Positions 17,866-60,417 of a stretch of DNA of 64,000 nt are shown here, piece after piece. The translations under genes and the position numbers were made by a program. The notes beneath the pieces are model-generated. The model was not told the DNA's origin. It did no database searches and saw only the letters and a program-made list of their open reading frames with translations. Source of the stretch: Psammoneis japonica (lineage: Eukaryota); contig QPGO01000252.1 in assembly GCA_008632985.1 (NCBI GenBank), positions 1 to 64,000 of the forward strand. The letters run 5' to 3'. Within the stretch, counting starts at the first letter, position 1. The number at the start of each line of letters is the position of its first letter.

Positions 17866-18385
17866 TTCTTTTCCTGGCCAGTGCATGAGATCTTTCATTT
17901 GAGTGCTTGAAAAGGGCGGGAAAATGAACACCGAATGTTTGCAGGTGGTGGTCTGAATTTCTGACAAATTCTCATCCTGGCCAGCGCATGAGATCTTTTA
18001 TTTGAGCGCGTGAAAAGGGCGGGAAAATGGAAAACATAATGTTTTAGGTTGAATTTATGATGAGTTCTTTTCCTGGCCAGCGCATGAGAGTCTTTCATCA
18101 TTTGAGCGTGTGGAAAGGGTGGGAAAATGGAACATTGAAGTTTTCGTGGCACGAACTTCAGGTCTGACGACTTCTTTTCCTGGCCAGCGCATGAGATCTT
18201 TCATTTGAGCGCGTAAAAGGGCGGGAAAGTGGAACATTGAAGTTACTAATGTCTGAATTTCTGATGAATTCTTTTCCTGGCCAGCGCATGAGATCTTTCA
18301 TTTGAGCGCGTGAAAAGGGCGGGAAAGTGGAACATTGGAATTTATAATGTTTGAATATCTGATTACGTGAAAAGGGCGGGAAAAT
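17866..18385. repeat. ~100 bp minisatellite, 5 units plus a partial one: ~65 bp conserved core and a variable linker
   Basis: Core ttcttttcctggccagcgcatgagatctttcatttgagcgcgtgaaaagggcgggaaaRtggaacat starts at 17866, 17969, 18065, 18172 and 18269, with a partial unit at ~18365. Confidence 0.92.
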
Positions 18386-25268: not shown

Positions 25269-26442
25269 TTGATTTTCCGTCGCAGGCATGTGCAACGTGT
25301 TGAAGGATGACTAACAACCAATGGTAGTGTGCTTCGAGATAGCGCGCTTTCAATCCCGCAATTCCGTAACTGACTTTTTTCTACTGCTGTTATTATTTTC
25401 ATCACTCTGAGGCCTCGCCCTCCTTCCCATCCACAAAGTATGTAAGACTTGGGACATCGTGTCTCGCGCCACTGAATACATTTGTCACGCTCACAATTGG
25501 TGAACCAAGCATTTTTTAGAGTTTTCCACGGATCATTCTTCAGTGACACTTTCACCAATGTCTGTCGTTCATCAAAGAGACAATCATCTTTGATGCTGAT
25601 TCTTTCTTGAAGCCATGCCACAGCACAGACCACTCACTCATGAAAGCCGTGACACACCAAATGTGAGTGATGCCAAATCAATCTCTCCTGCTTTCTTGGG
25701 TCACCATGTGAGGGGGCATTTCTTCCCTTGCTTGTGAACTTTAAAATGAGCCAATGGGAGACAACCACTGAAAAAGTGCTGCCTTTTCATTGCGTGCTTC
25801 AACTTGCACATCCAGGCAAAAACATTTGGGTCATGAGCATGCCTGAGCATGCCTGCAATGTCTGCCAAGAACTTGACCTCTCTTCATGCTTGGCACACAA
25901 TCACCTTCCACAAATGAACCCTAGAGTGGCAAGGAAAAGGCTGAGCCGCACACGTTTCCCCAGAGTGCCACAGGCTGGCCGAGTTGGGGCACTCAATCAT
26001 GCTGGTGAAGCTGCCATCTTTCTCAGCCTGCCATGGCCTTTTTCCAACTCCAGGGCTCAACTGTTCTTGTTCCACGCAGCTCTTGTGCTTCTCTTGGTGT
26101 TTGGCGCCACAAAACACCAAGAGTCGTCGTGAGGAGTTGTGTGGTGTGCTGCCCGGTGTGGTGATGAGCTGCAGGATGGGAGCTGGATGATGCAGGTGTG
26201 GCAATGTGTGAGATAGAGAGAGAGAGAGACAATGAGTGAGGAGCATGGCCAAGGCAAAAAAGTTTTTGACACACGGCAAATCACCGATTTTTCGGTGAAT
26301 GAAAATGCATTCGCGCGATCGCGCATGGGAATCCAGAATCTCGGTATTTTGCAATGACTGCACATTTTTCTCACAATCATCACACACAAAAAGACCCGCA
26401 CATTGTTGTTATTGTTTTGCAATCATCAAAGAACCATACACC

Positions 26443-29400
26443 ATGCTGACCAAGTTTGAAAGCAAGTCAGCCCGTGTCAAGGGACTTGCGTTTCATCCGG
26501 TTCGACCATGGGTTTGTGCATCTCTTCACAATGGTGTGATTCAATTGTGAGTAGTTTGTTGGTGTCTGTGCGTAGAATTGCGTAGAATTTGTACTAGTCC
26601 AATATCTTTTTTTATTGAAAATGACCGGGCGTGTGGGTGCAACCATGACGATAATGTGCGTTCAAACTTGAGATTCTCACACAATCCTTACTATTCTTAC
26701 TATCATCATTATCAACAGATGGGACTATCGCGTCGGCACTGTGATTGATCGTTTTGAAGAACACGAGGGCCCCGTCCGGGGTGTTGATTTTCACTTGCAC
26801 GAGCCTCTCATTTGCAGTGGAGGCGACGATTACAAGATCAAGGTTTGGGATTACAAACTCCGTCGTTGTCTCTTACACTCTTGGGTCATTTGGATTACAT
26901 TCGTACCGTCCAATTCCATCCCAATGCGACGCAATTTCCGTGGATTTTGAGTGCCAGTGACGATCAAACGCTGAGGCTGTGGGATTTCAACAAGCGATCG
27001 TGTCTTTCTGTATTGACGGGACATAATCATTATGTCATGTGTGCCGCGTTTCATCCGAGTGAAGATTTGATTGTGAGTGCATCACTCGATCAGACGGTGC
27101 GTGTGTGGGATACGACGGGATTGCGGAAAAAACAAATGGGATTGCCGACCGGAAACAGTGGTGGTGGTATGCAGGAATTGAACGGTGGAAGTCATGCCAA
27201 CCGTGCCAATGCGGCGGCACTCAATGTGCAGGCGGAACTGTTTGGAACAAATGATGTTGTGGTCAAGTATGTCTTGGAGGGACACGACCGTGGTGTCAAT
27301 TGGGCAGCCTTTCATCCGACTTTGCCCTTGTTGGCGAGTGCGGCCGATGATCGGCAAGTCAAGTTGTGGAGAATGAGTGGTGCGTAGTATTGTAGTATGA
27401 TATTGTTATTGATGCTGTTTCTTCGTTACTCAACTTGCGCTTCTCTCTTTCTCAGAAACAAAAGCATGGGAGGTGGATACACTCCGCGGACACGCCAACA
27501 ATGTGTCGTGCTGTCTCTTTCATCCCAAACACGATTTGGTCGTGTCCAATTCCGAAGACCGCAGCATTCGCGTATGGGACGTGTCCAAACGCGTGGGTGT
27601 TCAAACCTTTCGTCGTGAAGGCGATCGCTTTTGGATTCTTGCCGCACACCGTTCCCAGAATTTGTTGGCGGCCGGACACGATTCCGGCATGATTGTGTTC
27701 AAACTGGAACGCGAACGACCGGCGGCCGCACAGGGACCGTCCAACAAGTTGTATTATGTTCGTGGACGAGAATTGTTTTGTCACGATTATGCTCGTGCCG
27801 CGACGTCATCGGGCAGTGGTTCTTCGGGTGTCGATGTACCGATTGCCTCACTCCGTCGTGTCGGACAACAGGCACAAACGGATGGCATTGGTTCGGCACC
27901 ACGCTTTATTGCCTACAACCAACACAATCCCGCCGAGGGCAATGTTTGGTTTGTTCCGATGTCGATGGTGGTGTTTATGAACTCGTGACGTTTTCACTCA
28001 CCAACACGAGCGGTTCCGTCACGGACGGCAAACGCGGTGCCTGTTTGGGACCCGGCGTCTTTTTGGGACGCAACCGCTTTGCCGTTTTGGACCGGCAGTC
28101 GCGTCAAATTATCGTCAAGAATTTGAATAACGAAACCACCAAACGTGTCCAACCGCCGGTACCCAATGTCGATGGTTTGTTGGAGGGCGGAGCGTCGGGA
28201 AGAATTTTGCTTCGAGCCGAAGACCGGGCCATTTTGTTTGAAGTGCAGAGCCGACGTGTCTTGGGAGAAATTACGGCACCCAAGATTAAATCCGTCGTTT
28301 GGTCTCCCGACAACAGCAAGGTGGCAATCTTGTGCAAGTACGGTGTCGTGATTGCCGACAAGCAATTGGAACAGCTCTGTTCGGTCAGTGACAATGTCCG
28401 CATCAAGAGTGGAGCGTGGGATGTCAGTTCGGGATCATCGTCGCAACTCTTTGTCTACACGACACTCCATCATGTCAAGTATTGTTTGCCGTCGGGTGAT
28501 ACGGGAACGATTCGTACCTTGGACAATCCCTTGTATGCCATGCGTGTCGTGAAGGATCAATTGTTTTGTTTGGACCGTGAAGCACGGGCTCGTGTGGTGA
28601 ATATCGATACGACCGAGGCGCGATTCAAACTGGCATTGGCCAACAAGAAGGTGAGAGGTGATATACTGAGATTGTTGTTGTTGTTGGCTTGGTCATTTAT
28701 TCTCACACAATTGCATCTCTTTTGTCTATCGCAATAAACAGTACGGCCAAGTCATGCACATGGTTCGTCACAGCCGTCTCTGTGGCCGCGCCATTGTGGC
28801 ATACCTTCAGTCCAAGGGCTTTCCCGAGGTGGCGCTTCATTTTGTCCGCGAACCACACACGCGCTTCCGCCTTGCCTTGGCGTGCGGTAACATTGAGGCT
28901 GCCATGGAGAGTGCCTTTGCGATTGAACAGCAAGGCAGCACCACGGAATCCAAACGTGACGTTTGGGGTGAGCTGGGCAGTGAAGCCCTGCGTCAAGGCA
29001 ATCATCAAGTAGTGGAAATGAGCTATCAACGTACCAAGGACTTTGATCGGCTCTCCTTTTTGTATCTACTCACGGGTGACACGGAGAAGCTTCGTAAAAT
29101 GCTCAAGATTGCCAATATGCGTGGCGACATTATGGGGCGGTACCATAATGCGTTGTTGTTGGGTGATGCCGCCGAACGCGTTGCCGTGCTGGAGGAAAGC
29201 GGAAACTTGCCATTGGCGTATATTAGTGCCGTCATGCACGGTCTAGATGAGGCTGCCGAACGAATCAAGGTTGCCATTGAAACCAACGAAGGAACCGTCG
29301 AGGGACTGAGTGAGTACCTGTTTTGTTGTGTAGTTTGCTTTGAATGCGTTTACTCGACGCTAATTCTGTATTCCCTTTTTGTTTTTGCCGCAGTGGAAAA

Positions 29401-30763
29401 GGTCACGCCTACCAATCCTGCCGACAAGAAAAAGGCAAGCTGCCTCCTACAGCCTCCAACGCCAATCGTCCGGGCAAACAACTGGCCAACCTTGGATGTT
29501 CAAAAGACGACTTTGGAAGACTTGTCGGCTGCCGATGTCGCTGAAAATGGCGGCGAAGAATACGTGGAAACTCAGGCAACCACTCAAGACGGCGGTGTTG
29601 GTGGAGAATGGGACGATGATGCCTTTGACGATACCGGTGGTGCCGCACTACAGGAAGACGATGATTTGGACTTTGGCGACGATGATGGCATGGGTGGCTG
29701 GGGCGATGAACTTGATGATGATTTGGGTGATGACTTTGGTGAACCCGAACACGCCAAGGAACCCGTGGATGAAATGGCGGGTCTCAAGGAAATGTCAGAT
29801 GATGCCGCATTCTCCATGCCGGCCGCCGGACGTCCTCCCGTGGGTTGTTGGGTCGCCAACAGCTCGCATGCGGCGGATCATATCGCCGCCGGTGGCGCAG
29901 CGTCCGCCTTGCAGTTGCTCAATCGACAGATTGCTGCTAGTGAATTCTCGGTGGTCAAGGATTCCATGATGGGTTGTTACCTTGGGGCCATGATGAGTGT
30001 TCCCGGTGTCCCCGGAAGTGGCAGTTTGAGCATTCCATTGCTTCGAAATGACGGGGCTGGGCATCCCGGAGCGGAGAGCCTGCCTCGCACTTCTCTCAAG
30101 ATGAAGCATTTAGGTGCATCCATCAAGAATGGGTACAGGTTCTTCCAGGGCGGAAAGTTCAACGACTCCAAGGCTACGTTTAGTGATGTCCTTCAAAAGA
30201 TTCCTCTGGTTGTGACGGAGAGTCGAGCCGAAGCGAATGAAATCAAGGAAATGCTTGAGATTGGTCGCGAGTACATTACTGCGATTCGTATCAAGGCTGC
30301 CATGTCGGAGTGTGCTTCCGATCCTGTCCGTTCCACCGAACTGTCTGCGTATTTTACGCACTGCAACCTGCTTCCTGTCCACTTGTTGCTTGCTCTTCGT
30401 TCCGCCATGGGTGCTGCATTCAAGCACAAGAACTACATTACTGCCGCCGGTTTTGCACGACGCTTGCTTGAATTGCCCGATATGAGCAGTGAGCGCAATG
30501 CCGATTTGCGAGTCAAGGCACAAAAGGTTCTTCAAAAGAGTGAACAAATGGCACGCAACGAACACGAGTTGAACTATGACGAGTCTTCTACCTTTGCCAT
30601 TGACTGCAGGGACTTTGTACCCGTCTACAATGGTGACGCTTCCGTCAAGTGCTCGTATTGTGGATCTGTCTATGCCGATCTGGCCATGACGAAAAAGGTT
30701 TGTCTCACGTGTGGGTTTGCCGCCATTGGAGCCAACACAATTGGTCTCGTGACGGGATCGTAA
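26443..30763 (+). CDS. COPA: Coatomer subunit alpha (alpha-COP)
   Basis: Starts [21 protein letters not shown]40 repeats, [38 protein letters not shown] and a C-terminal CxxC pair. GT-AG introns at 26547-26718, 27380-27455, 28651-28741 and 29310-29393 all restore frame. Two apparent 1-nt deletions in T runs (~26872, ~27946). Confidence 0.97.
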
Positions 30764-39685: not shown

Positions 39686-40182
39686 TGTTGGAGGAAAGTG
39701 TTGGTGGATGCAAAGCTTTCAGCAGAGACATTCCTGATTCTTCCACCAAGGAGGAAGTTGTGCCCAGGTCTCCAACACAAGGACCCACTTGTTCTGTCAA
39801 CAAGTGTTGGCTTTGATTTCTTGAACCATGCTTGTGATCAAGATGCATCTGAAGGCATCCAAAGTTGGGTTCTTGCACAGTGGGCAATTTGAAGGCGAAC
39901 GAATGAATGCATGCCACGCATGTGAGTGACACTGGGTTCTCACCTCCTTGGACTAGATGGCTGCAGTGGCCACCAGCAGGACAACTGAGGGTGAACAGGA
40001 ACCGCAAGCGATGTGGGTTGCCGCCAGCTACAACCAGAGAGATGTGCCATTAACACAGATTGGCTGTTGGTGTCAGTGTCCCACTCTTTCTGTGTCGTTT
40101 GTGGTTGTCCATGTACAAAGCGGGCATGCTCTGAGCAAACGATTTGGGGAATTAATTATAACATGAATTTATGTGATGTGCA

Positions 40183-41417
40183 TTACAATTCAGGGGCTTT
40201 GAGAAAGCTCTTCATGAAGTCAAACCAGTACATTCTCGTTAACTTCTCATAGTTGTAGGTTGCTGAGCGACCCACAATCTTATCATATGACTCTTCCAGT
40301 AATTCAGGTGTCACGTCATGCTCTAAATTGTTTACAAGCAAGACGGGCAAGTCATCAAACACCCGATACCAGCCATCGGTCCGATTAAGTGTGTCCACAA
40401 CGGGGATCGTTCCCATGTACAGGGCTTCCCAAGTGCGGTAGCAGTCGTACCCGTGACCAGATGGAGACAGAACAAACTTGGATCGTCTTAATTCTTCAAA
40501 GTAGTCATCCTCAGTTCCCATCCTGTAAGTATTCTTGACACCAAAACTGGCAAACTTCTTCAATGCGGACTTTGTGATGTTCAACCGGTGATCAAATCCT
40601 GGTGGTTGACCATGAGTAACTGCGTCCTGTTTGCAGACCAGGGCTGCTTCAAATGCTTGAGAACTTCCCCCCTTCTCCTTACTCCTAATGGTAGAGTATG
40701 CACTTTTGGGTGGTCCACACATTGTTGATGGTTTGTTATTACGGCCAACATGTTGGGGTGTTCAAAGTACTCGACAAGGTCGTCCATCTTACAAGCTCCG
40801 TTTTCCGGGGATTTCCAATAATCAGGGAGTTTCGATGTTCGCCCTGGTATATGTGAGGAAAGAGCACCGCCGTCCCAAGTAGGTTTCGCAATGACTACGT
40901 GTGGCTTCATTCCTCCAAAGTGAAAAAAGCTGCGAACGGACTTGCAAATGTCGTCTTCGTAAACAATGGACGGAGTTGTGTTGTTCCACACAACAGCTCG
41001 CTCTTCGGTTATGTTGATTCCTTCTGACTTCAACGGACTGCCGAAGAGATCAACAAACTTAAAATCAGCCGGATGTTCAGCCACAAAGTGTTCGTCAAAA
41101 CGCCCCCCGCGCGGACCCCAGCTGAGCAGGTTGCTCTCTTCATTTTTATTTGCCAGGATGGAAGCGTTGATGCTTTTGTAGAGGTTTGAGTAGAATACCT
41201 CTGCAGACGCCTCATTTCGCTTCGACCTCGAAGCGACGGTTCCGAGAGAATTAAGTGCTCTTGCATCGAAATATACACGGTTTTCCTTGAACCAGCTACT
41301 GATGCTGCCAATGAAGAAATTCGATAAAGTGAACAACCCCATTAGGACAAGTGGCACCTTCCGTATCGATGATGACTGTGGTTTTCGTTCCGAAGTTCCT
41401 TCGCTCGTCAACGTCAT
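40183..41417 (-). CDS. Exostosin/GT47-family glycosyltransferase, copy 1 (1-nt frameshift near 40595)
   Basis: N-terminal TM anchor (type II) and SKFVLSPSGHGYDCYRTWEALYMGTIPVV. Near-identical to 47643-48881 but reads atcaaatcc where copy 2 reads atcaaaatcc, so either an assembly error or a young pseudogene. Confidence 0.85.
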
Positions 41418-41725
41418 AATATATTGCTTGTTCTTCGTTTAGGGCCTAGAAGGTCACTGCTGCTCGTACTGTACACTGCACTTCTCTTTAGACTATGGGT
41501 GCTATCAGATTGGCCGTTTTTGGCAGATAATCATGGATGGAGCGACGAGGAGGAGAGTCGCCTCAAAAACATTGAAATACATAATAACGGCTACAATCAA
41601 TTCTTATATTTTCATATACGTTCATTTTTAAAAACAAATGAATAATCATTTTTTAAATGTAACAATTTGAACAACAGTCATAGTGTCGGTCGTCGCGGCT
41701 TTCAACGAATTCTTTTTCAACGGAA

Positions 41726-44945: not shown

Positions 44946-47642
44946 AGAGAAGGCAAGTGCAACAGATGCACAATTAGATGAGAATTCTGACACATGTGGG
45001 TGAAAGATCCCTGTCAAATGAGAGGCCAGCAGCGCCTCAGTTCCAATGAAACACAATTCTCAACTAAAGAGACTTGTTTTTTGAGAACATGTTGACCATG
45101 GAAGAGGTCATTCTCAATGTTGATGACATGTTTAATGGTGCACTCGACACATTGTGCAATGCGGTGATGCAACCATGGCCTGTGGATTGCTGGCTTAGGA
45201 TCAGAGACCATGAGACTTTCAAGCATCTGGTGAACTGCAACAAGTTCAAGTTTCTTGTGGCAGAAGGAAGACTGCAAAAATTCTGATGCACATGGGTAAA
45301 AGATCCCTGCAACCTGGAATGGGTCATGAACTGGCAATTTTGACCAGTGTCTCCATTTTGTTGTGGCGATGATTTTTCACACTTCATGTCAGCCACTGAC
45401 CACAAGTTGCCATGATGCACAACCTGACTTGCCATGCCACCACATTGCTCAGAAATGGCCTTCTGGCCATTGGGAGGAGAGGTTCAAAAAGTTGGACAGA
45501 AACAGAAGATGGGACAAGAGAACATCTGCCAACAAGTGCATGATCAACACACTGGCTGCATCAACCCACTGGAAAGTGTTCAACAAGATTGAGTTGCAGA
45601 CAGAGACCCATTTGTTCAATGAGACCTTTTGGATTGCTGCCAACTGCCATTGTTGTGTGGTCGTCAGTCCTGCAAAACAAAAGAACTCCTGGCTGCAGCA
45701 ACGCAGCATGGGAGAGCAGATGAAAGGCACAAACTCATGAGATGAGTGTGCAAGACATGCAAGACATGGTCTCATGATGTGCACGCTTTTGTTTCCACCA
45801 CAACACTGATGATGTCAACACACAATGATCTGACGACAGCGAACAAGATCAAGACATGCAGAGAAGATGTGACCCTGCACAAAGAGAGCTGGCAATTTGT
45901 TGGGAGTTGACCTTGTGAAAAATGAGAGCTGCATCACAGCAGAGATGGCCAATGAGTCAAAAAGAGTGAAGCACACCTCATGGAGAATTGAGTCACAGCA
46001 GGCACAGATGACAATGTGTTTCAGCTTGTTTTCACAGACAAAGATTTCAAAGATTTGCAGCAAAACAACAGCACCAGCAGTTGTCCTTCCTGTGGAATGG
46101 ACAAGAATGGGGTGTGTGGTCCCCTGATGCAGTTAAATTTAACCCAATGTGATGGACAGCCCCACTTTGAACTGGTTCAAGGAATGAACAGAATTGTCTT
46201 TGATGCCAAAAAGTTGCCAGATTTCTTCCATTGCAACACCCACAATGTCAAGCTCAAGACCAGATGGGTTTGTCACCGCACGCAGCACATGTGAACTTGA
46301 CCCCAGAAGTGATCAATGGTTGAAATGTGTGCTTGCTGCAAGGTCCGTTTGTTGAGATTTTAAGAGAGAGACTCATCATGCTTTTGTCATCATGCTTTGT
46401 GGAGTGTGTCCGTGGAGTTGCCAACACATTGGATGATGTGGTTGACTGCTCCAACAAGGGAGACAATGTGCCAACCTGCAAGTTTGAAAGACATGAGATG
46501 TCAACTTTGAAAAGCAATGGGTGCAGCCGGCAGCAATGTGATTGATGTTCCCAGCATGGAGCCCTGTTCCAGTTGTCTGATGCCAAGCAACAACATCAAC
46601 ACAATGCAAGTGGCAGGAGTGTGTTGGAACAATGAGTTCTTTTGATGCCTGGATCCAAGACATGTGTGACCCAGAGTTGTTGAAGAGAAGACAATTGATC
46701 TCTGATGTGGATTGGAAGAACACTTCTTTAGTGTGTTCAATGATCTCATCCACATTGATTGACAAATTTGTGTTTTTTTGTCTCACTCTTTTTTGGAGTG
46801 AATCATTTGGCTCACATGTTTGTTGATTGGTGTCAAGAGATGCACGCATTTCAGCAGTTGCAGAGTTTACATTGTTGACACCTGGGCACACTGCAGCCAC
46901 TGGAGTTTGCCAAGGCAAGTGCAATGAGTGGCACAGGAGACATCACAGGATTCCCCTTTTGGTGACATTGACTTGCTGGTTCAACACAGCTCAACTTCTG
47001 CAGCACTGAGCACAAGTTCTTGGAGCTGGTGCCTGCCACTGTCAGGTGTGTCAAGCCTGTCACATGTCTTTCAGAGGAAGTCAACAAAAGGTTTTGCTGA
47101 GTCACAGTTTGGCCTTTTGTCTGCTTCAAATTTTTTTCAACTTGGCTCTTTTCAGGATCTCCAATGTTGCTCTCTTGTGCACCCTTCACATTTTTGCCCG
47201 TTGCCATTTTCAATGCAAGGTCCCCAACAAGTGCCTCGTTGGTCTGTCAACAAGCACCAAGCTCCAATTTCTTGACATGTGATCAAGGTGCAACTGAAGG
47301 CATCTGCAATTGGGTTCTTGGGTGGCAGAGTGCAACCACCCAGCACAGTGGGCAATTTGAAGGAGAGCAAATGAATGCATGCCACGCATGTGAGTGACAC
47401 TGGGTCCTCACCTCCTGTGACTGGATGGCTGCAGTGGCCACCAGCAGTACAACTGAGAGTGAACAGGAACCACAAGCGATGTGGATTGCCACCAGCTACA
47501 ACCAGAGAGATGTGCCATTAACACAGATTGTCTGTTGGTGTCAGTGTCCCACTCTTTCTGTGTCGCTTGTGGTTGTCCAAGTACAAAGCGGGCATGCTTT
47601 GAGCAAACGATTTGGGGAATTAATTATTTCATGTGATGTGCA

Positions 47643-48881
47643 TTACAATTCAGGGGCTTTGAGAAAGCTCTTCATGAAGTCAAACCAGTACATTCTCGTT
47701 AACTTCTCATAGTTGTAGGTTGCTGAGCGACCCACAATCTTATCATATGACTCTTCCAGTAATTCAGGTGTCACGTCATGTTCTAAATTGTTTACAAGCA
47801 AGACAGGCAAGTCATCAAACACCCGATACCAGCCATCGGTCCGATTAAGTGTGTCCACAACGGGGATCGTTCCCATGTACAGGGCTTCCCAAGTGCGGTA
47901 GCAGTCGTATCCGTGACCAGAGGGAGACAGAACAAACTTGGATCGTTTTAATTCTTCAAAGTAGTCATCCTCAGTTCCCATCCTGTAAGTATTCTTGACA
48001 CCAAAACTGGCAAACTTCTTCAATGCGGACTTTGTGATGTTCAACCGGTGATCAAAATCCTGGTGGTTAACCATGAGTAGCTGCGTCCTGTTTGCAGACC
48101 AGGGCTGCTTCAAATACTTAAGAACTTCCTCCCTTCTCCTTACTCCTAATGGTAGAGCATGCACTTTTGGGTGGTCCACACATTGTTGATGGTTTGTTAT
48201 TACGGCCAACATGTTGGGGTGTTCAAAGTACTCAACAAGGTCGTCCATGCTACAAGCTCCGTTTTTCGGGGATTTCCAATAATCAGGGAGTGGCGATGTT
48301 CGCCCTGGTATATGTGAGGAAAGAGCACCGCCGTCCCAAGTAGGTTTCGCAATGACTACGTGTGGCTTCATTCCTCCAAAGTGAAAAAAGCTGCGAACAG
48401 ACTTGCAAATGTCGTCTTCGTAAACAATGGACGGAGTTGTGTTGTTCCACACAGCAGCTCGCTCTTCGGTTATGTTGATTCCTTCTGACTTCAACGGACT
48501 GCCGAAGAGATCAACAAACTTAAAATCAGCCGGATGTTCAGCCACAAAGTGTTCGTCAAAACGCCCCCCGCGCGGACCCCAGCTGAGCAGGTTGCTCTCT
48601 TCATTTTTATTTGCCAGGATGGAAGCGTTGATGCTTTTGTAGAGGTTTGAGTAGAATACCTCTGCAGAAGCCTCAATTCCCTTCGACCTCGAAGCGACGA
48701 TTCCAAGAGAAGCAAGTGCTTTTGCATCGAAAAATACCCAGTTTTCGTTGTACTTACTGATGCCAATAAAGAAATTCGACAAAATGAACAACCCCATTAG
48801 GGTGATAATTAGCACCTTCTGCATCGATGACGACTGTGGTTTTCCCTCCGAAGGTATAGGTCCTTTGCTCGTCAACGTCAT
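47643..48881 (-). CDS. Exostosin/GT47-family glycosyltransferase, copy 2 (intact, 412 aa)
   Basis: Single intact ORF with an N-terminal TM helix and the GT47 C-terminal motif SKFVLSPSGHGYDCYRTWEALYMGTIPVV. Confidence 0.9.
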   Translation of the reverse strand: MTLTSKGPIPSEGKPQSSSMQKVLIITLMGLFILSNFFIGISKYNENWVFFDAKALASLGIVASRSKGIEASAEVFYSNLYKSINASILANKNEESNLLSWGPRGGRFDEHFVAEHPADFKFVDLFGSPLKSEGINITEERAAVWNNTTPSIVYEDDICKSVRSFFHFGGMKPHVVIAKPTWDGGALSSHIPGRTSPLPDYWKSPKNGACSMDDLVEYFEHPNMLAVITNHQQCVDHPKVHALPLGVRRREEVLKYLKQPWSANRTQLLMVNHQDFDHRLNITKSALKKFASFGVKNTYRMGTEDDYFEELKRSKFVLSPSGHGYDCYRTWEALYMGTIPVVDTLNRTDGWYRVFDDLPVLLVNNLEHDVTPELLEESYDKIVGRSATYNYEKLTRMYWFDFMKSFLKAPEL

Positions 48882-49088
48882 AATCTTCTTTCCGCAGGAA
48901 GAAGGTCACTGCTCGTACACTGCACTTCTCTTTAGACTACGATGGTAAAGTATGGGTGCATAGACTACTGACTAGTAGAGGGCCCTACTGTATTCTTTGG
49001 GTGCATCGCCCTACCCCAATCCAAAAAATGCACCGTTGCATTGAGCGAGTGAGAGGAGTCGAGTCGTCGTCGTCGTCGTCGTCCAGTG

Positions 49089-49758
49089 TAAAGGTAAAGG
49101 TAAAGTACGATACCGGTAGCCCTAAGTTTCCATGTACGGTACTGTATGTACGTCAGCTACTACTTCCTGATCTATCAATACATATCAGTATCTACGTACT
49201 GTAGAACGCAATTTTTTCAAAGAGAAATGCTGCTTATGAAAAATATTCAAGGGNTTTAGAAGTTTTTGCAGATGTTACACATTCAACCGTCGATACTCCG
49301 TTTGTCAACTCCGTCTTTGGATAATACTATATATATGCTCGAATGACTGATTTAATGGCGTGGCGGGCGTGGGCATGACCTTCATTTGAATTCGTACTTA
49401 TGAAGAGACATTCTATTTATTGCCTCAGCATTTTGTTCGTTAAGTGCGTAGACCAGTACAAATCCTACACAAAAAGTCATATGCAGTCAATCAACATTGT
49501 TGTATATTCGTCATGAATAAATCATTTGAATGTTTTTTATGTGTCAATGGTTACATCATATTGCATTTTATGCTAGTCGTAGCCCCATAAAGGTAAAGGT
49601 AAAGTACGATACCGGTAGCCTTAAGTTTCCATGTACGGTACTGTATGTACGTCAGCTACTACCGGTACTTCCTGATCTATCAATACATATCAGTATCTAC
49701 GTACTGTAGAACACAATTTTTTCAAAGAGAAATGCTGCTTATGAAAAATATTCAAGGG
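49089..49758. repeat. ~165 bp near-identical direct repeat next to an assembly N
   Basis: 49089-49253 is repeated at 49588-49758. The first copy ends exactly at the N (49254), so contig or haplotype overlap is likely. Confidence 0.8.
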
Positions 49759-51910: not shown

Positions 51911-54900
51911 GCATGATTTAATGGTGAAGTTTGTTCTTCCCTCACTCCACCACAAGGGGCCGCTTTGTGTCGATTTGCATCCGTCATGGTCGTGCATCAT
52001 TTTTTCCGCGCGCCGCACCGGTCGCCATGAGGATAAAAGCACACCCGCCTGTCTGTGGTTGCCGCACATTGCCGCATTCCATTCATTTTTTGTTCCCCTC
52101 CCCTGAGCCCCCGCTGAATTACCCTCATTTCCCGGGAATTCCCCAAAAGGGCAAGGCAATTCCCCCTTGCCCTTGCCATTTTGGGGAATCCCCAAATGGC
52201 TAAAACCAAACTGAGACCATCGGTGTTGCGGACATTGGCCCTTCCCCTGCCACAGCACTGTTGATGGTGCTGCTGCCAACACATGACCAGACAAGTGCTT
52301 CTGCTCATCTCCATGTCCCCCTGCTTGCTGAACAAAATTTAAGGTGCTTCCTGCACTGTTCCTTTTTGCCAGCTTCTCTGTGTGAGAAGTCCATTTTCAA
52401 CCGTGGCTTTTTGTCAAGAAGTTCAATGACAAATGGTCTGAGCTCACCAAAAAAGAGAAATCTGCTCTGGTCAACTGAGGTGGGCTGGACATTGACCACA
52501 TTCTTGAGTGTGTTTCCAACATTTGCTGCTGGCCACATGATGTGAAGTGCCAAGCTTGTTTGTTGCACAAGGGTGAGTGTGGCCATGGCCACCAGTGTCA
52601 GATTGATTTTTTGATGAGCAAATTGAAACAGCTCTGCCAAGCTCTGGGCATGGCTCCTGCCATTTGTCTCTGTGATCCCAAGATGTTTGTGCATTGCAAT
52701 GACACAGCAGTGACTCACAATGGGAACCAAGAAGATGCTGGTGCTTTGGCAAAAGACACAGACTGGCATGGTGTTCATGACAGAATTGAGTGTGGATGTG
52801 AGTTCAATGCCATTCCCAAGAAGAAAGCAGTCAAACAGCAGAAACCAACCCACTGCTGTGACATTGGCTTTGATGGTGGCCATCGAATGGATGTTCTTCC
52901 AGTTCAGATGGACACAGCTGTTCCAGCCTTCTTCAAGCCATGTGGCTGCCCAAGTCAAAGTCGTCAAACTTCTCAAACACCCATCAGGCCAACAATGTGT
53001 TCATTGATGCTGTGATTGAAGCTTGAGATGCCACAGGAAAATCAGGCACCCTTTGTCCCCAGGAGCAGCATGCATCTGTTTGATGATCCCTCTCACCCTC
53101 AGTGCAATGCAACATTTGGCAACACCTTGCACCCAAGATCAACACAAACTGTTCATGTTTCAGTGTGACCTGCAAAGTTCCTGGCTTTGATTGGGAGCAT
53201 CATGATGGCTCCCAGCTTGTGTGTGAGGTGTGCCTCTGTCTGTGTTTGACTTTCCAGCTTAACTGTGTTAAGATGGTTTTGGCACAATGTGCAATGAACC
53301 CAGCAAAATGTTGGTTGAGTCTGGTGGGGCAGGTGCACTCACAAAAACACAAAGTGCATTCCATCCGGTGCCCTTGCTGAAAGCTGAAAAAGCAAGGAGT
53401 GTTCTCTTCCCATTGTCAGAGTGGGGTGCAGCATCAACCTTAACAACATGAGGCAACATGTGGAACAATTGCTTCTCATCCCAATTGTCCATGCAGAACC
53501 AGCAAAAAGATTGTTGCAAGAGCACTGCTTGAACAAATCGCACTCTCCCATTGGCGCTGATCTAGAATGTCTGAGCACAATTGCTCCAAATCTTTGACTT
53601 ATCTTTCTCCATCAACACGTGCTTTGCTGAACAGCAAGGCAGACTAGAAATGAAGACTTTGCTCACAGTGGGGAGCATGGCCAGTGTTGTCTCCACTTGC
53701 AAGGATGCAGCAATCAACGACATTGCATTTGCAACTTCATTGCCCCATTGAGGAGAGGTTCATCCAACTCAGGCAGCAACAGAGCAAGGTTTTCTTTGTC
53801 TGCCTCTCTCATGACTCATTTGATTTGTGACCACATCAGAAAAATGTCCTTGTTCACCAAAATGCAGTTGCAAACTTGACCAGCACACAAATGCCCCTTC
53901 CTTGTGCATTTCATGGTGTGGTGATCTCTGACACACCAATGTGTTGTGCCTTCAAAGTCATTTCTTTGGGAAGATGCCAGAAGTGATTGGCATGACAAGA
54001 CCAACCTTTTCCACACATGAAACAATGACAAACTGGTTGCACTTGAAGTGAGTGTTCCATCCCCACAAGTTTCTTTGTCATCAATGGACTTTGTGGCTTG
54101 GTCACAATGTGGCTCTTTCTTGTGGCCTTGCTTCCAATTGTTGTGATGATGATCATCATGCAGAGAAGACTTCCGGCAATTTGGACAGAGTTGCTGGGGT
54201 GAAGAGTCTGCCAAGTGTCTTTGCAACATGTGTGCTTGAGATGGCACAAGTGTCTGTGCACAACCTGTTGCATGTCACATTGTCTTTGCTGCAGCCATTG
54301 GTGGAGGTGGGCATTTGCTGTGTCAAAATGGACAAGTCTGCCTTGCACAGATTGTCCTTTGAGCTGCCACTGAGATGATCATCCATGAAACAAGATGGCA
54401 GGACACCCTTGGTTGCAGAATCACAAATGGGCATGAACAAGAGAGCTGTCCCAGCCCAACTCCAACCCCAAAAACATGGTGTCAACAACACCAAGCATGT
54501 CACACATGTTGTTGCAGCTGCAAACCATGGGATCATTCCCTTCCTCCCCCACATTGAAAATGTCACCACCATCTTGATGCCTGTCATCTCCTGCATCTTT
54601 GGGATGGTTTTCCTTTGTGTCTGCACAACACAATCCAAAGCAGCAGCAATGGCAGAACAATGTGCATTTGTGGTGGCAGCAAGCAGCAAGCAAGGGTTCA
54701 TCATCGTCCTTGCCTTGCCCTTGCCCTTGTCATCAGATTGTTCATTGGAATCAGGCCCACATTGAGAGAGTGCCAGCATCAGAGAGATGTCCTCATTGCT
54801 GGAGCAACACAAAATTCATCTGAGCAAACAGAGTCATTGTTCAAGTCCAGTGAAAAATGAGTGTGCCATGGTGAAAGCACAAGTGAAGAATGGTGCAGAA

Positions 54901-55512
54901 TGGGGCACAACTGAGAATTCTTGATGATGCAATTAAGTTGGCATGCCACCAAAAACAGTGGTTTTTCATTTCACATCATCATTGCATGCATTCCTGGAGT
55001 TGAGCATGAAAAGGTCAGTTGGGACAAGTCTGTGACTTGGCACACACCCACTGTTGACCCCCAACTGGGATGCTGGCAGGCATTTTTGGTGATTTCTCTT
55101 TGAATTTTTCCACCGGGCATCAAATCCATCAATTGAATGGAAATTGGAGATTGGGAACAGAACTCACAAGTGCTCCCTGCCACATCACATGCACCAGTGC
55201 AATGCATGTCCACTGAGAGTTCTTGGGCCCCTCTTCCTTGGTGGCAGCTGACACTGGCTTTTTGGCAGTGGCAGACTGACTTGGGCCACTTGGCAACAGC
55301 ATCCTGCCTCTTCTGCCTTGCTCCTCTGAGCTGCAGCCTGAGCAGTCATTGCAACCCTGTGTCTCAGGAGCAGCAAAGGCTCTTCTTTCTCAGCCTTGCT
55401 TGCAAATTGCCAGCTGGAGTGCTGGCTTTCTGTTGAATGCTAAATGTGCAGAGTTGCAGCAGTGCTGGCCAACAAAAAAGACAAAATTGCCACTGTCACC
55501 ACAAGCCGGCAC

Positions 55513-55630
55513 AAGATCCTTGGCAGTGACCACAAAGAGACCTGGACTCACTGCTTGCCACACAGCAGCTTAAGATCCTTGACAGTGACCACAAAAAGAC
55601 CTTGAGTCACTTCTTGCCACACAACAGCTT
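55513..55630. repeat. 59 bp tandem duplication
   Basis: aagatccttgRcagtgaccacaaaRagacc...cttgccacacaRcagctt at 55513 and 55572. Confidence 0.85.
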
Positions 55631-57789
55631 TCTTCTTGGGAGCAACAGGGGCATCAGCAGGGCTGACAATGTTGGAAGACAGTGGCTCACATTTCCCCCC
55701 AAACAGAAGCTGCTTGAACTTTGCACTGGGAGGCTGCTCCTGCTGACCTGGTGTGCTGCATGGCTGCAAACTCAACTTGGGCAAGGGCACAGCTTTTGGA
55801 GTGTTGTTTTGCCACTGACAACTCTGGAAGCATTCTTCTCTTGAGAACACTGATGCCTGCTTTTGCAGATCTTCCATTGCTCTCTGCAAAAAAGAGAGGG
55901 ATGCAAGAGAACAAAAAAGACTGAAAAAGCAGAGGCAAAGGCCCAAACAGCTGCAGTGCAAAAATGTGGCAGCCACCATGACAACATGGTGGCTGCCACA
56001 CCTGGGGTTGTGGCAGCTCTCATGATGAGAACTGTGACCACCCCAGCACTCATTTCCATGGGTTTTTTGCACTTCTTTCCTTCCTGTTTTGTGCTCCTTT
56101 GGCATGATCACATCCAGTCTTTTCAGACTGATTGGCCACAGAACTTTTCCATGATCTTTGCTTGGACAGCATGGGATCAGGCAGCTGCCAAAGAGGTTGA
56201 GAATGACAAAGGGAACCTGGGAAATTTGCAGGTTTGAACTCTTCTGAGATTCCAGGCTGGCGCCAATGCAGACAGCAAAGATTTTGAACCTTTGCAACTT
56301 TCTACATGTTGCTCTTTCCACTGCCTCAACAAAGCCATTCTTTGAACTTTCAAACTTTGCTTGAACAATTCCTCACAAACAAAAAATGTCACATTGAGCA
56401 TGCACTGCATGTGCTGCTCTTGAGAACTTGTGGGTCATGGCAATGCAGGGTTGTGCACTCATTTGTCCGACATGGAGAATGAAACACAAAAAATAAAATG
56501 ACAACAGAGACAACTGCCAGCACTTGCAAGGGTTTTTAGGGCAACAATGCTGCAACCAAACAGACTGCTTGACAACAATTCCATCACAATCATTCTCAAT
56601 CCTCTGGAAAGGTCAGATGAAAAGAGAAGCATTGTTGTGCACTCAGCAATGGATGTGATGCAAGGTGTTGCATGTTGTTGAGTTAAAAGATGGCATTGGA
56701 ATTTGAGAGCAATGCACAAAATGTTGATTTTTGTGGGCAACGTGGAGCTGTTTGAATGCACTCAAACACTTCTGGGGGCACTGTGAAGTTTCAATTTTTT
56801 TTCATCAGAGCTTTTTCAGATGGCTCAAACTTTTTTTGTTGATGACAGAAACAATCTGCAAAGTGCACACATGGTCAAAAACATTGCAGGAATGTCAGAG
56901 AATGCAAAATCTTGTTCTTTTTCTGACTCTCAAAAATGTGAGACGAGTTGTCAACATGGTTCTTGGCACTTGCTTGGCAGACATTTTCTGTGCTTTTCAC
57001 GACATGAAGGCCATCTCCCTCATGCCACCTTTCTCAGAAATGGACAGCACCAACCCAAAAAAAAAACAAACTCATTTGCACTTCTTGGGTTTTGGGAGAT
57101 GCAGCAACTGCGCCAATGGAGCCTTTTCTGTCCATCACATGCACCCCTGAATCTGCTGATTGGCTGCAAAATGCACACCTGGGCAAGTTTGAATGACAAC
57201 AAGCCAAGCACACTTGCACCCACCTTTGTTGGCAAGCACCATGATTGTCACAGAAAATCTGTGCTATTTTGAAGCTTGTGCACCTGTGTTCAGAGGACAA
57301 ACAAAATCAGCATCTGCTCTGACATCTGCACAGCATCTGTCTTTCCTTCTCTGCAATGCAACACAGCAAGATCTGCGTGGACCTGGGCCATGCAAAAGGG
57401 AGAAGTGGCGGATGGAAGGATTCTTTGAAGACTGCACAATCCACCTGGTTCATGCCAAATCCAACCCAGTTTTAGCCAAGTCAGCAAAAATCTGTGCTTT
57501 TTGACAATCTGCACATGGAGAGCACAGGAAAATTGGGCAGCTGTGTCACTTTTTGGACATTTGTTGAAATGAGGTGGCCAAACATGTTTCAATGAGGCTT
57601 GCATGGGTTTTGTGTGTTGGCAACAAATGAAGTTGCTAAAAATGTCAGCACTGGCAATTGTGCCAAAAATGAACATGACAAGAGCTGCTCAACCTTGAGT
57701 GGAGCAGCAAAGAAAAACCAGCTTGAGAGTGCAGCAAATTTCATCCTGGCTGCACTCATTGCAGAGAAGAGTGCAAGCCCAAAACTTTC

Positions 57790-58060
57790 CAATGCAGAGT
57801 GGAAGAAAAAAATGGTTTCCAAAAAGACACAAGTTGGACAATTCTGCAAGTCATCCAAGTTCACTGCTGGGCATCGATCATGTCAACACATTGTTGCCAA
57901 GATGCAAGCAGTCAAATTTGGTCAGCTGTCCAAGCTCCACAACAGGGACAGTGTTTGTTGACAGGTTGTCTGCAAGACAGAATTCTGCCAGTTCTGTAAG
58001 TTGCCCAAGCTCTGTTGGAGTGGTTCCTTCTATTTTGCTGTTGCAAAACCCAAGATCACA
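57790..58060 (-). pseudogene. Decayed partial duplicate of the adjacent LRR coding segment
   Basis: Aligns with 58330-58590; translation DLGFCNSKIEGTTPTELGQLTELAEFCLADN...LGQLTKFDCLHLGNN followed by stops. Confidence 0.85.
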
Positions 58061-58237
58061 CACACACCAAAGCAGGTTATTGTGATCAGTGTCCAGACAC
58101 AAAAACAAGTGATTTTCAAACTGATGACATAAGAAAACGGACACCAGCAAGTCAAACCAATCTTAAAAGCTTGCATCCACTCTACCATAGAAAAGGATTT
58201 ATTTGAAAAACATTTTTTCACATCGCACAGGGTTTCT

Positions 58238-58830
58238 TCAAGAGTGTGGCCAAGGAAACGCGTCGGCCCAGTAAATTTCATCCCGGTGGCGTTTGTCGCC
58301 GAGAACGCGCAAGTCCAAAATTTCACAAGGCAGAGTGGAAGAAAAATGGCTTCCGAAAAGATACAAATTTGCCAATTTTGTGAGTCGTCCAAGTTCGCTG
58401 GGTTTGGATCCCATCAACAAGTTATCAGCCAGATGCAAGTAGTCAAGTTTGGTCAGCTGTCCAAGCTCCGTAGGGATGGTGCCTGATAATAGGTTGTCCG
58501 CAAGACACAATTCTCTCAGTTTTGTAAGTCGTCCAAGCTCAGTTGGAATGGTTCCTTCCATTTTGCAATTGCAAAACCCAAGATCTGTCAATTTCATTAA
58601 TCCAAGCTCAGTTGGAATTCTCTGGTGCATTGGACTGTGCTCAAGTTCAAAAACGTCAACGACTGCAGGTCGAAGACCTGCGTTGGTAGGTGAGCATCCG
58701 CGTTCGTCATGTCACCTGTCCTGGAGTCACCCGAATAAATAGATTTTAGCTCAGATTTTAACAAGCCAAGTTCTGTTGGAATGTATCCACTGTAGTTACT
58801 ATGCTCATTAGAGAATTCTCCGCACTCCAC
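58238..58830 (-). CDS. Plant-type LRR protein segment (IPTELGxLTxL repeats); frameshifted, possibly pseudogenising; 5' structure unresolved
   Basis: SGYIPTELGLL, EGTIPTELGRLTKLRELCLADNLLSGTIPTELGQLTKLDYLHLADN; frame change near 58620. Confidence 0.7.
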
Positions 58831-59389
58831 TCCCTTACGCCCGCCATCCTCGATTCCTCCGAAGCGACGAGTAAAGGATCAAGTCGGGGTCAATGCTGTC
58901 GATTTCTTTCTCATGATTCGGTTCTACCCATGCCGGCAACACGATCCTTCATAACGTTCTCTGAAAATGGCGTTGAGCCTATCAGCCATATCATTTAAAC
59001 TATCTGCTTTTTACGTGCTGCTTTCTTTTTCGAGCAGCCTTGTTGGTACTCTAGGCCTCCAGTCAGAATGCGCGGGTGCCACAACGAATGCTTCTGTTTG
59101 CCCAATTCGCACACTTTGCTGCTGCATCAGCAACGACAAAAGCAAGATAAGACAACACATGGGAAAGGTCCTCCATTATGTGGCCGAGAGCATGATGCGG
59201 ATTTCAAGACGCCGATGACAGAGAATCGCCGCAAGAAAATTTCCACGTTGCAACTCTTGTGTGCGTAACGCGAAAACCGGAAACTTGAGTCGTGCCCAAT
59301 TGCCAAATCTTCTCCAAAGAGGAAATCACAACCCTGATCGACTGACTCACTGACTGATGGAATGCTAGGACTCCTTGTTGCGCTCTCTG

Positions 59390-60417
59390 TCATGGGCTTC
59401 CGACAAAAACAAAATTCTGGAAATCAATTTCACCATTGGTGGCGCTCAACAGGGCAATCACAGACGAAGCCTGGACTGCTGGCGACAAATCTATTCTCTC
59501 TGCTACAACGTCATTGGCATTGTTACCCTGTGCATTTTGCCCACGCCGTGGCATTACTGTTTGCGTGCCAACGAGTTGGCTGTTTGCCGTGAAGAATTGA
59601 CAATCGATTTGGTCCACGTCAAAGCCTTCTCCAAAATAGTTCCAAAAATATACTGCTTCGAGATTGTACTCTACCCCATCAAAGTCAAAAATGAGTTCCA
59701 AAGGACCTGGATTCCACCGAACGTGCTCTGTTGGTTGTGCTGTTCACCTTCGTCCAAACCAAGACAGTCAACGACATTGGCGAGGGACTGCTGTGTGGGG
59801 ACATTCACAAAACCACCGCTCGGATTAGAATTTGGTCCTACGGATACCGTCACCGGAATGTTGTCGCTGCATAGCTGTAGAGTTGGAGTTGGTGTAGTCA
59901 CCACTACTTGTGTTGGCAGGTTTGTAGGGGATGGTGTTGGCTGCGGCGGTTCAGTCGGCGTAGTAGGTGTCGGAGCGGGCGTTGACGGGGAAGGCGATGG
60001 TGTAAGTAAAGGTGTCGGCGCTGGAGTTGGACTCGTTGTTGGTGATGGTGAAGGAGCTGGTGTTGGTGACGGCGTTAGTAGAGGCGTCGGAATGTGCGTC
60101 AGTGGAGTTGGTGGTAATGTTGGGGACAAGATACTGCCTTCTTCTGAATCCAACAGTCGCTACCAGAACGTGCTGTGTTCATCTCGTTCTTCTTGTGAAT
60201 CCACAATTTGTTTCCACAAGTCTTTGTACTGTCCATTGTTTTTCTTGTTATATGTAAAACCATATCCACTCAAAAGCATAGAGGAAGATGTTTGTACCTC
60301 ATTGCCGTTGCGAGTCTTTCTCAACATTGACGCACGAACCGCATCATTCTTGGCAGAACCCGCTTTTGCCTCAGAGGTGGCCACAAACACAACAAAGAGA
60401 AGCTCACTGAATCTCAT
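59390..60417 (-). CDS. Secreted mucin-like Pro/Thr-rich protein with a C-terminal beta-sandwich (discoidin/F5-8C-like) domain; interrupted in this assembly
   Basis: ATG at 60417 with signal peptide [25 protein letters not shown] repeats; [20 protein letters not shown]. In-frame TAG at 60160-60162 and a 1-nt shift near 59712. The domain call is tentative. Confidence 0.65.

Follow-up and report, generated by a model that had tools for sequence, protein, structure and literature searches.

The closest described counterpart to the pattern reported here comes from the alga Bigelowiella natans. In mutation-accumulation lines, two of its integrated viral regions mutate ~1000 times as much as the rest of the genome, with nearly all changes converting TpA to TpG or CpA; the targets are integrated giant-virus and virophage DNA, and Mettrop et al. 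propose adenine deamination by an ADAT2-like enzyme (bioRxiv 10.64898/2026.01.13.699255). The text of that preprint makes no mention of CpG (0 occurrences), diatoms, or stramenopiles (bioRxiv 10.64898/2026.01.13.699255). Our full-text literature search returned no paper on TpA loss in diatoms, and only the Bigelowiella preprint describes such a process. Here, we analyze a 64,000-nucleotide stretch of the diatom Psammoneis japonica (positions 1 to 64,000 of contig QPGO01000252.1, assembly GCA_008632985.1; the whole stretch is called the window below), in which a partial copy of a leucine-rich repeat (LRR) gene lies in a domain nearly free of TA and CG. We hold it to be probable, with good confidence, that a process confined to such domains in this diatom mutates TpA and CpG to CpA or TpG in place, and that it has hit the gene fragment while sparing the gene.

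The locus resembles B. natans in the conversion of TpA to TpG or CpA by strand, in regional confinement with a normal remainder of the genome, and in long-term TpA depletion with CpA and TpG enrichment in kilobase clusters. The targets are also not simply repeats in either case, the viral inserts not being described there as repeated. However, B. natans is a chlorarachniophyte and not a diatom, and its mutations were seen directly, whereas ours are inferred from sequence. Depletion is mild in its viral region (rho TpA of 0.45) compared with observed/expected ratios of 0.04-0.08 here, where CG is erased as well and the target includes a fragment of a host gene.

Three other systems bear comparison. 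In Neurospora and further ascomycetes, repeat-induced point mutation (RIP) causes C:G to T:A changes, mostly CpA to TpA, hence creating TA, and strikes both copies of a duplicate; it depends on a RID-type cytosine methyltransferase and takes place before meiosis. By contrast, TA is destroyed at our locus, where just one copy of the pair is hit and other duplicates remain intact. What the two have in common is hypermutation by transitions at particular dinucleotides, which wrecks DNA that is duplicated or non-genic and creates domains of skewed composition with sharp bounds (e.g., PMC2621366, PMC7296669). In the diatom Cyclotella cryptica, methylation is reported mainly at CpG and marks repeat blocks of up to 30 kb, between which lie gene-rich blocks free of it; a decay of CG to TG or CA in repeat-rich blocks that alternate with gene-rich ones would resemble our locus, with similar block sizes (PMC5124317). 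Such decay accounts for the CG half alone and not for the TA loss, and the TA-poor zones of our window are the wider ones (39,950 vs. 33,020 bp). By analogy, the CG half would fit deamination of 5-methylcytosine. The APOBEC and ADAR enzymes of animals target the intermediates, single-stranded DNA or double-stranded RNA, that elements form as they replicate, whereas the DNA altered in place here is resident in the chromosome and includes a gene fragment that is not mobile. The likeness lies in deaminase-driven, context-specific transitions directed against selfish or foreign nucleic acid, as outlined in the preprint (bioRxiv 10.64898/2026.01.13.699255).

The two copies of the LRR sequence form one direct partial duplicate. 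By blastn, positions 58269-58585 match 57732-58057 with 77.9% identity over 326 columns, the only similar-sequence pair in the window that involves the region 57732-58585; in a global alignment, 254 of the 326 columns are identical, alongside 63 substitutions and 9 gap columns. An earlier interpretation of the letters (the sequence-only reading) had paired 58330-58590 with 57795-58060, and this pair is present with a somewhat wider true extent. No homology was found beyond the 326-bp core on either side, where local alignment scores equal the shuffled null. Because homology stops on both sides, the outer copy is a fragment of 326 bp, with the orientation of its parent and 211 bp away from it.

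The gene-side copy (58269..58585, minus strand), recognized from the blastn pair, the codon table, and Pfam, makes up the 3' coding portion of the LRR gene's last exon and covers LRR units b, c, and d and most of the C-terminal tail. That exon (58238..58878, minus strand), drawn from the open frame and a read-set contig, is a single 213-aa frame with four IPTELG-type LRR units and a short tail, given the contig's extra base after 58642. Its open reading frame at 58238-58711 on the minus strand matches the Pfam models LRR_1 (35.7 bits, cut-off 20.6) and LRR_8 (34.5 bits, cut-off 27). The outer, repeat-side copy (57732..58057, minus strand; blastn pair and codon table) contains two in-frame TGA codons (GGA>TGA and CGA>TGA) and four indels when read in the gene's frame, and it is a dead pseudogene fragment of the LRR exon. 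Between the copies lies a non-duplicated spacer of 211 bp (58058..58268, no strand), delimited by sequence and dinucleotide counts and made up of a (CA)n run at the junction (58057-58068), the presumed 3' flank of the gene, its stop codon (58238-58240), and its last 10 codons. The spacer has six TA and five CG, four of the latter in the coding end.

The gene-side copy has eight TA and 12 CG, while the outer copy has two TA and one CG along with 40 CA and 31 TG; from gene to fragment, CA plus TG thus rises from 50 to 71, and TA plus CG falls from 20 to three. Where the gene copy has TA, the fragment has CA five times, TG twice, and an unchanged TA once (7/8 converted). At the 12 CG of the gene copy, it has TG in five cases, CA in three, and AG in two, with two more sites broken by indels and none intact. 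Conversions therefore occurred on both strands, each step yielding both products (five CA and two TG from TA; five TG and three CA from CG). In the reverse direction, the fragment shows TA at just 1 of 29 gene CA and CG at 0 of 21 gene TG. When the same substitutions were placed randomly on the gene copy in 20,000 trials, chance yielded 1.9 TA and 2.8 CG conversions (P = 5e-5 and 1e-4, respectively). There are counter-examples in the fragment: a shared TA survives at 57997, and there is a new TA at 58031 (CA in the gene) and a CG at 57875 (GG in the gene).

The individual changes that the sequence-only reading had quoted are in the sequence, both at TA (gaTAca>gaCAca at 58362, aagTAgtc>aagCAgtc at 58440, and TAaTAgg>TGaCAgg at 58488 and 58490) and at CG (ttcCGaa>ttcCAaa at 58355, gtCGtcc>gtCAtcc at 58387, and gtcCGcaa>gtcTGcaa at 58499). 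A seventh, ttCGctg>ttCActg, is also present, provided that a 3-nt indel at 58396 is placed accordingly. The proposed replacement of LDYL by FDCL is correct by the codon table, and the motifs LRELCL and DYLHL occur in the gene copy as described. Set against the known systems, the TA changes are of the B. natans type (A:T to G:C at 7/8 TpA), but the spectrum is not limited to TpA, with 12/12 CG lost and 36 other substitutions. The CG changes are those of CG decay, with 8/12 now TG or CA and none intact, in a domain with a CG observed/expected ratio of 0.07.

The direction of change from TA/CG in the gene copy to CA/TG in the outer copy, as the earlier reading had it, is supported at every polarizable site, and no TA/CG difference points the opposite way. 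An alignment with LRR paralogs and an outgroup ortholog had been recommended for polarizing the changes. The gene's own 72-nt LRR units provided the first of these, with their consensus and coding logic serving as outgroups, whereas a usable ortholog was not found. The fragment differs from the unit consensus, to which the gene conforms, at L4 (CTT>TTT), L7 (TTG>TTC), I18 (ATC>GTC), and G16 (twice), as well as at the T of LTKL (ACA>GCA). The gene also has the consensus at L14, where TTA>TCA in the fragment is a TA>CA change, and at the T of IPTELG, where T|ACG>T|GTG combines one TA>TG and one CG>TG. The CGA>TGA difference is a CG change that created a stop codon in the fragment. In all, seven events are placed in the fragment (four TA/CG changes and three CA<->TG double changes), and no TA/CG event is placed in the gene.

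For longer homologs, our outgroup search returned 120 long LRR proteins at 31-53% identity, none usable as an ortholog; the few with a source name are mostly bacterial, and the set served solely for residue frequencies per LRR position. A scan of metagenomes gave 390 pattern-matched stretches, with no relative among them by tblastn. Additional read-set contigs that differ by ~9-13% (e.g., 21/223 and 15/123 letters) align over 59400-60200, the 5' part of the LRR gene, and paralogs of this 5' part therefore exist elsewhere in the genome. The duplicated 3' part appears to have none, and no other read-set contig is at least 85% alike over the duplicate.

Double changes between CA and TG provide a second line of evidence. 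On the simplest account, such a swap would begin with an ordinary transition that makes TA or CG out of CA or TG, after which the hypermutable dinucleotide mutates on to one product or the other. The LRR pair has five adjacent CA<->TG double differences against an expected 0.9-1.3, and those that can be polarized fall in the fragment. Across nine repeat pairs inside the deserts of the window (the bins nearly free of TA and CG described below), some of which overlap and are not all independent, we counted 42 swaps against ~7 expected, with P<=0.002 in six pairs. The pairs 9859-10150/15220-15524 and 9376-9586/20527-20735 have nine swaps each, compared with 1-1.8 expected. By contrast, two control pairs outside the deserts had one swap (0.2 expected) and none (0.03 expected).

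At the scale of the whole window, 1-kb bins fall into two sharply distinct states. Gene-bearing bins have observed/expected ratios of ~1 for CG and ~0.5 for TA, whereas in desert bins both TA and CG are at ~0.05 and CA and TG at ~2. The domain that ends at the outer copy (53571..58070, no strand; delimited by composition) is of the second kind, with 1,258 CA plus TG against 676 expected and 37 TA plus CG against 682 expected; over 52300-57731, the ratios are 0.04 for TA, 0.07 for CG, and 1.8-1.9 for CA and TG. From 17 TA and 1,258 CA plus TG in 5.4 kb, a rough equilibrium estimate would put mutation rates at ~50-100 times the background. A sliding criterion classes 39,950 of the 64,000 bp as TA-poor and 33,020 bp as CG-poor, with 32,380 bp in both classes, 7,570 bp TA-poor only, and 640 bp CG-poor only. 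CG-poor zones are thus nearly nested within TA-poor zones, which usually extend further. For example, TA density falls at ~50,940 while CG is still frequent up to ~52,230, and the interval 25481-26400 between two genes is TA-poor with normal CG. This pattern would speak for two processes, one of TA loss and one of CG loss, with related but non-identical reach. A single enzyme acting on both steps was considered and judged less likely, given the 7,570 bp by which TA-poor zones exceed CG-poor ones.

Whether the fragment was mutated as a duplicate or by virtue of its location can be judged from other sequences in the window. A RIP-like process, in which duplication is sensed and itself triggers mutation, would agree with the mutated stretch belonging to a closely linked 326-bp direct duplicate. 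However, one copy alone is affected, the gene copy retaining its eight TA and 12 CG, synonymous sites included, and the chemistry is reversed relative to RIP, with CA turned into TA at just 1/29 sites and a net flow from TA to CA/TG. The desert also continues for kilobases leftward through sequence without a second copy in the window, and a longer and more similar duplicate outside the deserts is untouched. The latter (39766-41495 and 47218-48939) is a 1.7-kb duplicate with a core that is 96-100% identical; it carries two GT47-type glycosyltransferase genes, and its copies retain 64 and 61 TA and 71 and 60 CG. Tandem repeats at 17860-18363, likewise outside the deserts, have kept their TA and CG too. 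Within the domain, 57142-57597 is covered by extra contigs, while 57598-58057 is spanned by a single contig and the fragment is not in a multi-copy family at a likeness of at least 85%. Because the gene copy and the 1.7-kb duplicate are untouched, duplication is not sufficient for targeting, which would follow domain position, although selection on live genes could likewise purge mutated alleles. We regard a RIP-like trigger as highly unlikely.

An artifact could arise from long-read base-calling, with modified TA and CG bases in silent chromatin misread as CA or TG. If the pyrimidine of a self-complementary step were misread on one strand or the other, precisely these products would result, and the indel errors of the assembly at homopolymers are of the kind that long reads produce. 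To examine the sequence in other data, we used a contig (record 1 of run X1) from one public run that holds 91% of the sampled words of the stretch. This contig, of 5,320 nt and word depth 63, spans 56800-59430 and agrees with the fragment at 323 of 326 positions, the exceptions being 57757, 57758, and 57875. It shows the same erased fragment with no TA or CG restored, so the erased state is not peculiar to one assembly. At 57757-8, the assembly has CA and the contig TG, a difference that misreading could produce; at 57875, the only CG of the fragment in the assembly is TG in the contig, which removes a CG instead of restoring one. Differences of the TA/CG class make up two of the five differing spots (three of the six listed letters) between assembly and contig in the stretch, and 57757-8 and 57875 hint at recent or allelic events of this class. 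The fragment also has the indels, transversions, and stop codons of truly decayed sequence, and the desert repeat pairs have diverged through CA<->TG swaps as fixed differences would. We therefore give the base-calling explanation very little chance. Equally hard to credit, and in our view scarcely credible, is ADAR-like A-to-I editing of a transcript that was then reverse transcribed and inserted. ADAR-type enzymes do favor U before the edited A, as stated in the preprint (bioRxiv 10.64898/2026.01.13.699255), but the fragment keeps its parent's orientation at a distance of 211 bp, in a domain that is wholly affected up to a sharp edge. Moreover, both products occur (five CA and two TG), CG is lost too, and there are no retrocopy marks at the fragment.

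The edge of the erased zone, as placed by TA and CG positions, falls within 57962..58138 (no strand), ~170-240 bp beyond the stop codon of the gene. Conversion of TA extends to 57962; the TA at 57997 is the first to survive, and another stands at 58031. Conversion of CG extends to 58002, and no further CG occurs before 58138. Observed/expected ratios for TA and CG go from 0.08 and 0.06 in the fragment to 0.35 and 0.58 in the spacer and 0.34 and 0.73 in the gene copy. The regional confinement known from B. natans is seen here as TA ratios of 0.04 in the domain and 0.08 in the fragment vs. 0.34-0.56 in the gene and other genic DNA. Edges need not be fixed. The left ends of both GT47 copies run into desert, where copy B has CA or TG at 39901, 39955, 40004, and 40023 (copy A coordinates) and copy A has CG or TA; over 1,410 aligned bases, TA/CG is retained 13 times in A and three times in B. 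Because one copy lost four TA/CG sites within 130 bp, edge position can apparently shift slightly, by ~130 bp, between young copies.

The sequence-only reading had gone further, suggesting that the process may be spreading into the 3' end of the gene on account of the Cys in LRELCL and the His in DYLHL. Comparison of the copies does not show such spreading: both carry these residues, which therefore predate the duplication and cannot show spread after it, and the remaining deficit is marginal. In the first 528 bp past the edge (spacer and gene copy), there are 14 TA against 23.3 expected (P = 0.027) and 17 CG against 25.4 expected (P = 0.053), both relative to the pooled genic level and uncorrected. 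These deficits are within the spread of genic 1-kb bins, where TA observed/expected ranges from 0.24 to 1.02. Among 1906 LRR units from the 120 homologs, position 8 (the Cys of LRELCL) is Cys in four, Tyr in 280, and His in 90, and so rare a Cys is what an old TAT>TGT change would leave. An old replacement of Tyr by Cys through TA>TG is therefore plausible for LRELCL, though it is no evidence of present erosion. The lost sites in one of the two young GT47 copies would also be in line with a process that has already crossed the edge and is eroding the live gene. However, the polarizable CA<->TG double differences are assigned to the fragment, and the last exon is intact as a 213-aa frame. We consider ongoing erosion of the gene unlikely.

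We thus return to a process that acts by domain. A 326-bp piece of the last LRR exon would have been placed as a same-orientation copy 211 bp downstream of the gene, inside a kilobase-scale domain where self-complementary pyrimidine-purine steps mutate in place, TpA to CpA or TpG (A:T to G:C) and CpG to TpG or CpA (G:C to A:T). Free of selection, the fragment would have lost 7/8 TA and 12/12 CG there, while the gene copy, just outside the domain, kept its own. Targeting would depend on position in a silent and, by analogy, probably CpG-methylated chromatin domain and not on a second copy. The CpG part could then be ordinary deamination of 5-methylcytosine, and the TpA part would be enzymatic, most likely the work of a TadA/ADAT-like deaminase that turns adenine on either strand into inosine, which is read as G. 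Such deamination at TpA, limited to silent domains, is the most likely route, with the enzyme itself inferred. Any TA or CG newly arisen in the domain would soon give way to one or the other product, leaving CA<->TG double changes. Enzymes of the TadA/ADAT-like class prefer T before A. The same preference is also argued for B. natans in the preprint (bioRxiv 10.64898/2026.01.13.699255).

Several observations weigh against this interpretation or limit it. Two CG were lost through C>A transversion and not by transition, and 36 further substitutions (~12%) are neither TA/CG changes nor CA<->TG swaps; because of these other substitutions, the duplication is held to be old, and part of the divergence arose in the gene. 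In unit d, for instance, at LRR position 12 (a non-TA/CG site), it is the fragment that has the consensus Asn (AAC) and the gene that has Ser (AGC). About half of the TA/CG differences (~4 TA and 7 CG) are unpolarized because neither an ortholog nor a close paralog was found. The intact state of the gene copy may be due in part to purifying selection and not just to position, and a single mechanism for both steps is unlikely, as the borders of TA and CG zones are not all common. Finally, no library type is on record for run X1, and it is from the indel pattern alone that its data appear to differ in kind from those behind the assembly. Still, we regard the locus as a real, well-supported instance of a rare kind of process.

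A broader proposal can be put forward only tentatively, and we think it somewhat doubtful as a whole. Diatoms may have active DNA editing that is guided by chromatin domain, directed at adenine in TpA on both strands across silent domains, and bounded ~150-300 bp past the 3' ends of genes; it would be of the same kind as in the rhizarian Bigelowiella, would represent an old genome defense of the stramenopile-alveolate-rhizarian (SAR) group, and would follow position instead of sensing repeats. If domain-guided editing of this kind is true, any host sequence that lands in such a domain, as the LRR fragment did, gets rewritten.

Near-total removal of TA and CG over more than half of a genome stretch is far from the usual picture of mutation in eukaryotes, and it has one printed description so far, a 2026 preprint on an unrelated alga. 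Our locus adds a host-gene fragment, not a transposon, that was changed base by base relative to a live parent 211 bp away, with polarity from internal outgroups, a CA<->TG swap signature with controls, and a fine map of one edge. It also adds an argument for targeting by domain position that separates the process from RIP, and it points the hunt for a guiding signal toward marks of chromatin or methylation that end just past the ends of genes. Double changes between CA and TG offer a simple, outgroup-free test for the process in any genome. In genomes of this kind, substitution models and repeat dating will be badly off, and gene finders will meet long false open frames in TA-free DNA because TGA is the sole remaining stop codon.

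Such frames bear on the nature of the deserts. None of the nine open frames scanned in the domain 53571..58070 (at least 130 aa) has a Pfam domain. In the window-wide scan for transposon domains (frames of at least 130-140 aa), 46 of the 81 frames lay in TA-poor zones, and their sole match was an FG-GAP repeat. Because these 46 frames gave just this one Pfam match, it seems that the desert cannot be labeled transposon DNA within the window. The match lies in an open frame at 5588-6109 on the plus strand, in TA/CG-free desert (Pfam E of 1.5e-8), and is possibly another host-gene fragment caught there.

Assembly and read-set contig also differ by seven one-base indels, all at homopolymer edges (57008, 57056, 57264, 57346, 57365, 58642, and 58934; no strand), where the assembly is without the base. 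Two of the seven sit in the LRR gene and break its frame. Because of such base losses at homopolymer edges, gene models from the assembly will carry false frameshifts.

Elsewhere in the window, a coatomer alpha gene (C-terminal 697 aa at 28670-30760) has diatoms only as its best named matches, with Trieres at 70% followed by Thalassiosira, Skeletonema, Chaetoceros, Nitzschia, and others. Its best match overall is 74-76% identical, so the protein collection includes no close relative. The window thus reads as nuclear diatom DNA. A further pair of copies, at 49089-49253 and 49588-49758, is 95% identical and TA-rich (22-23 TA per ~170 bp) instead of TA-depleted. These copies flank position 49254, the single N of the window, which is probably an assembly gap within a repeat.

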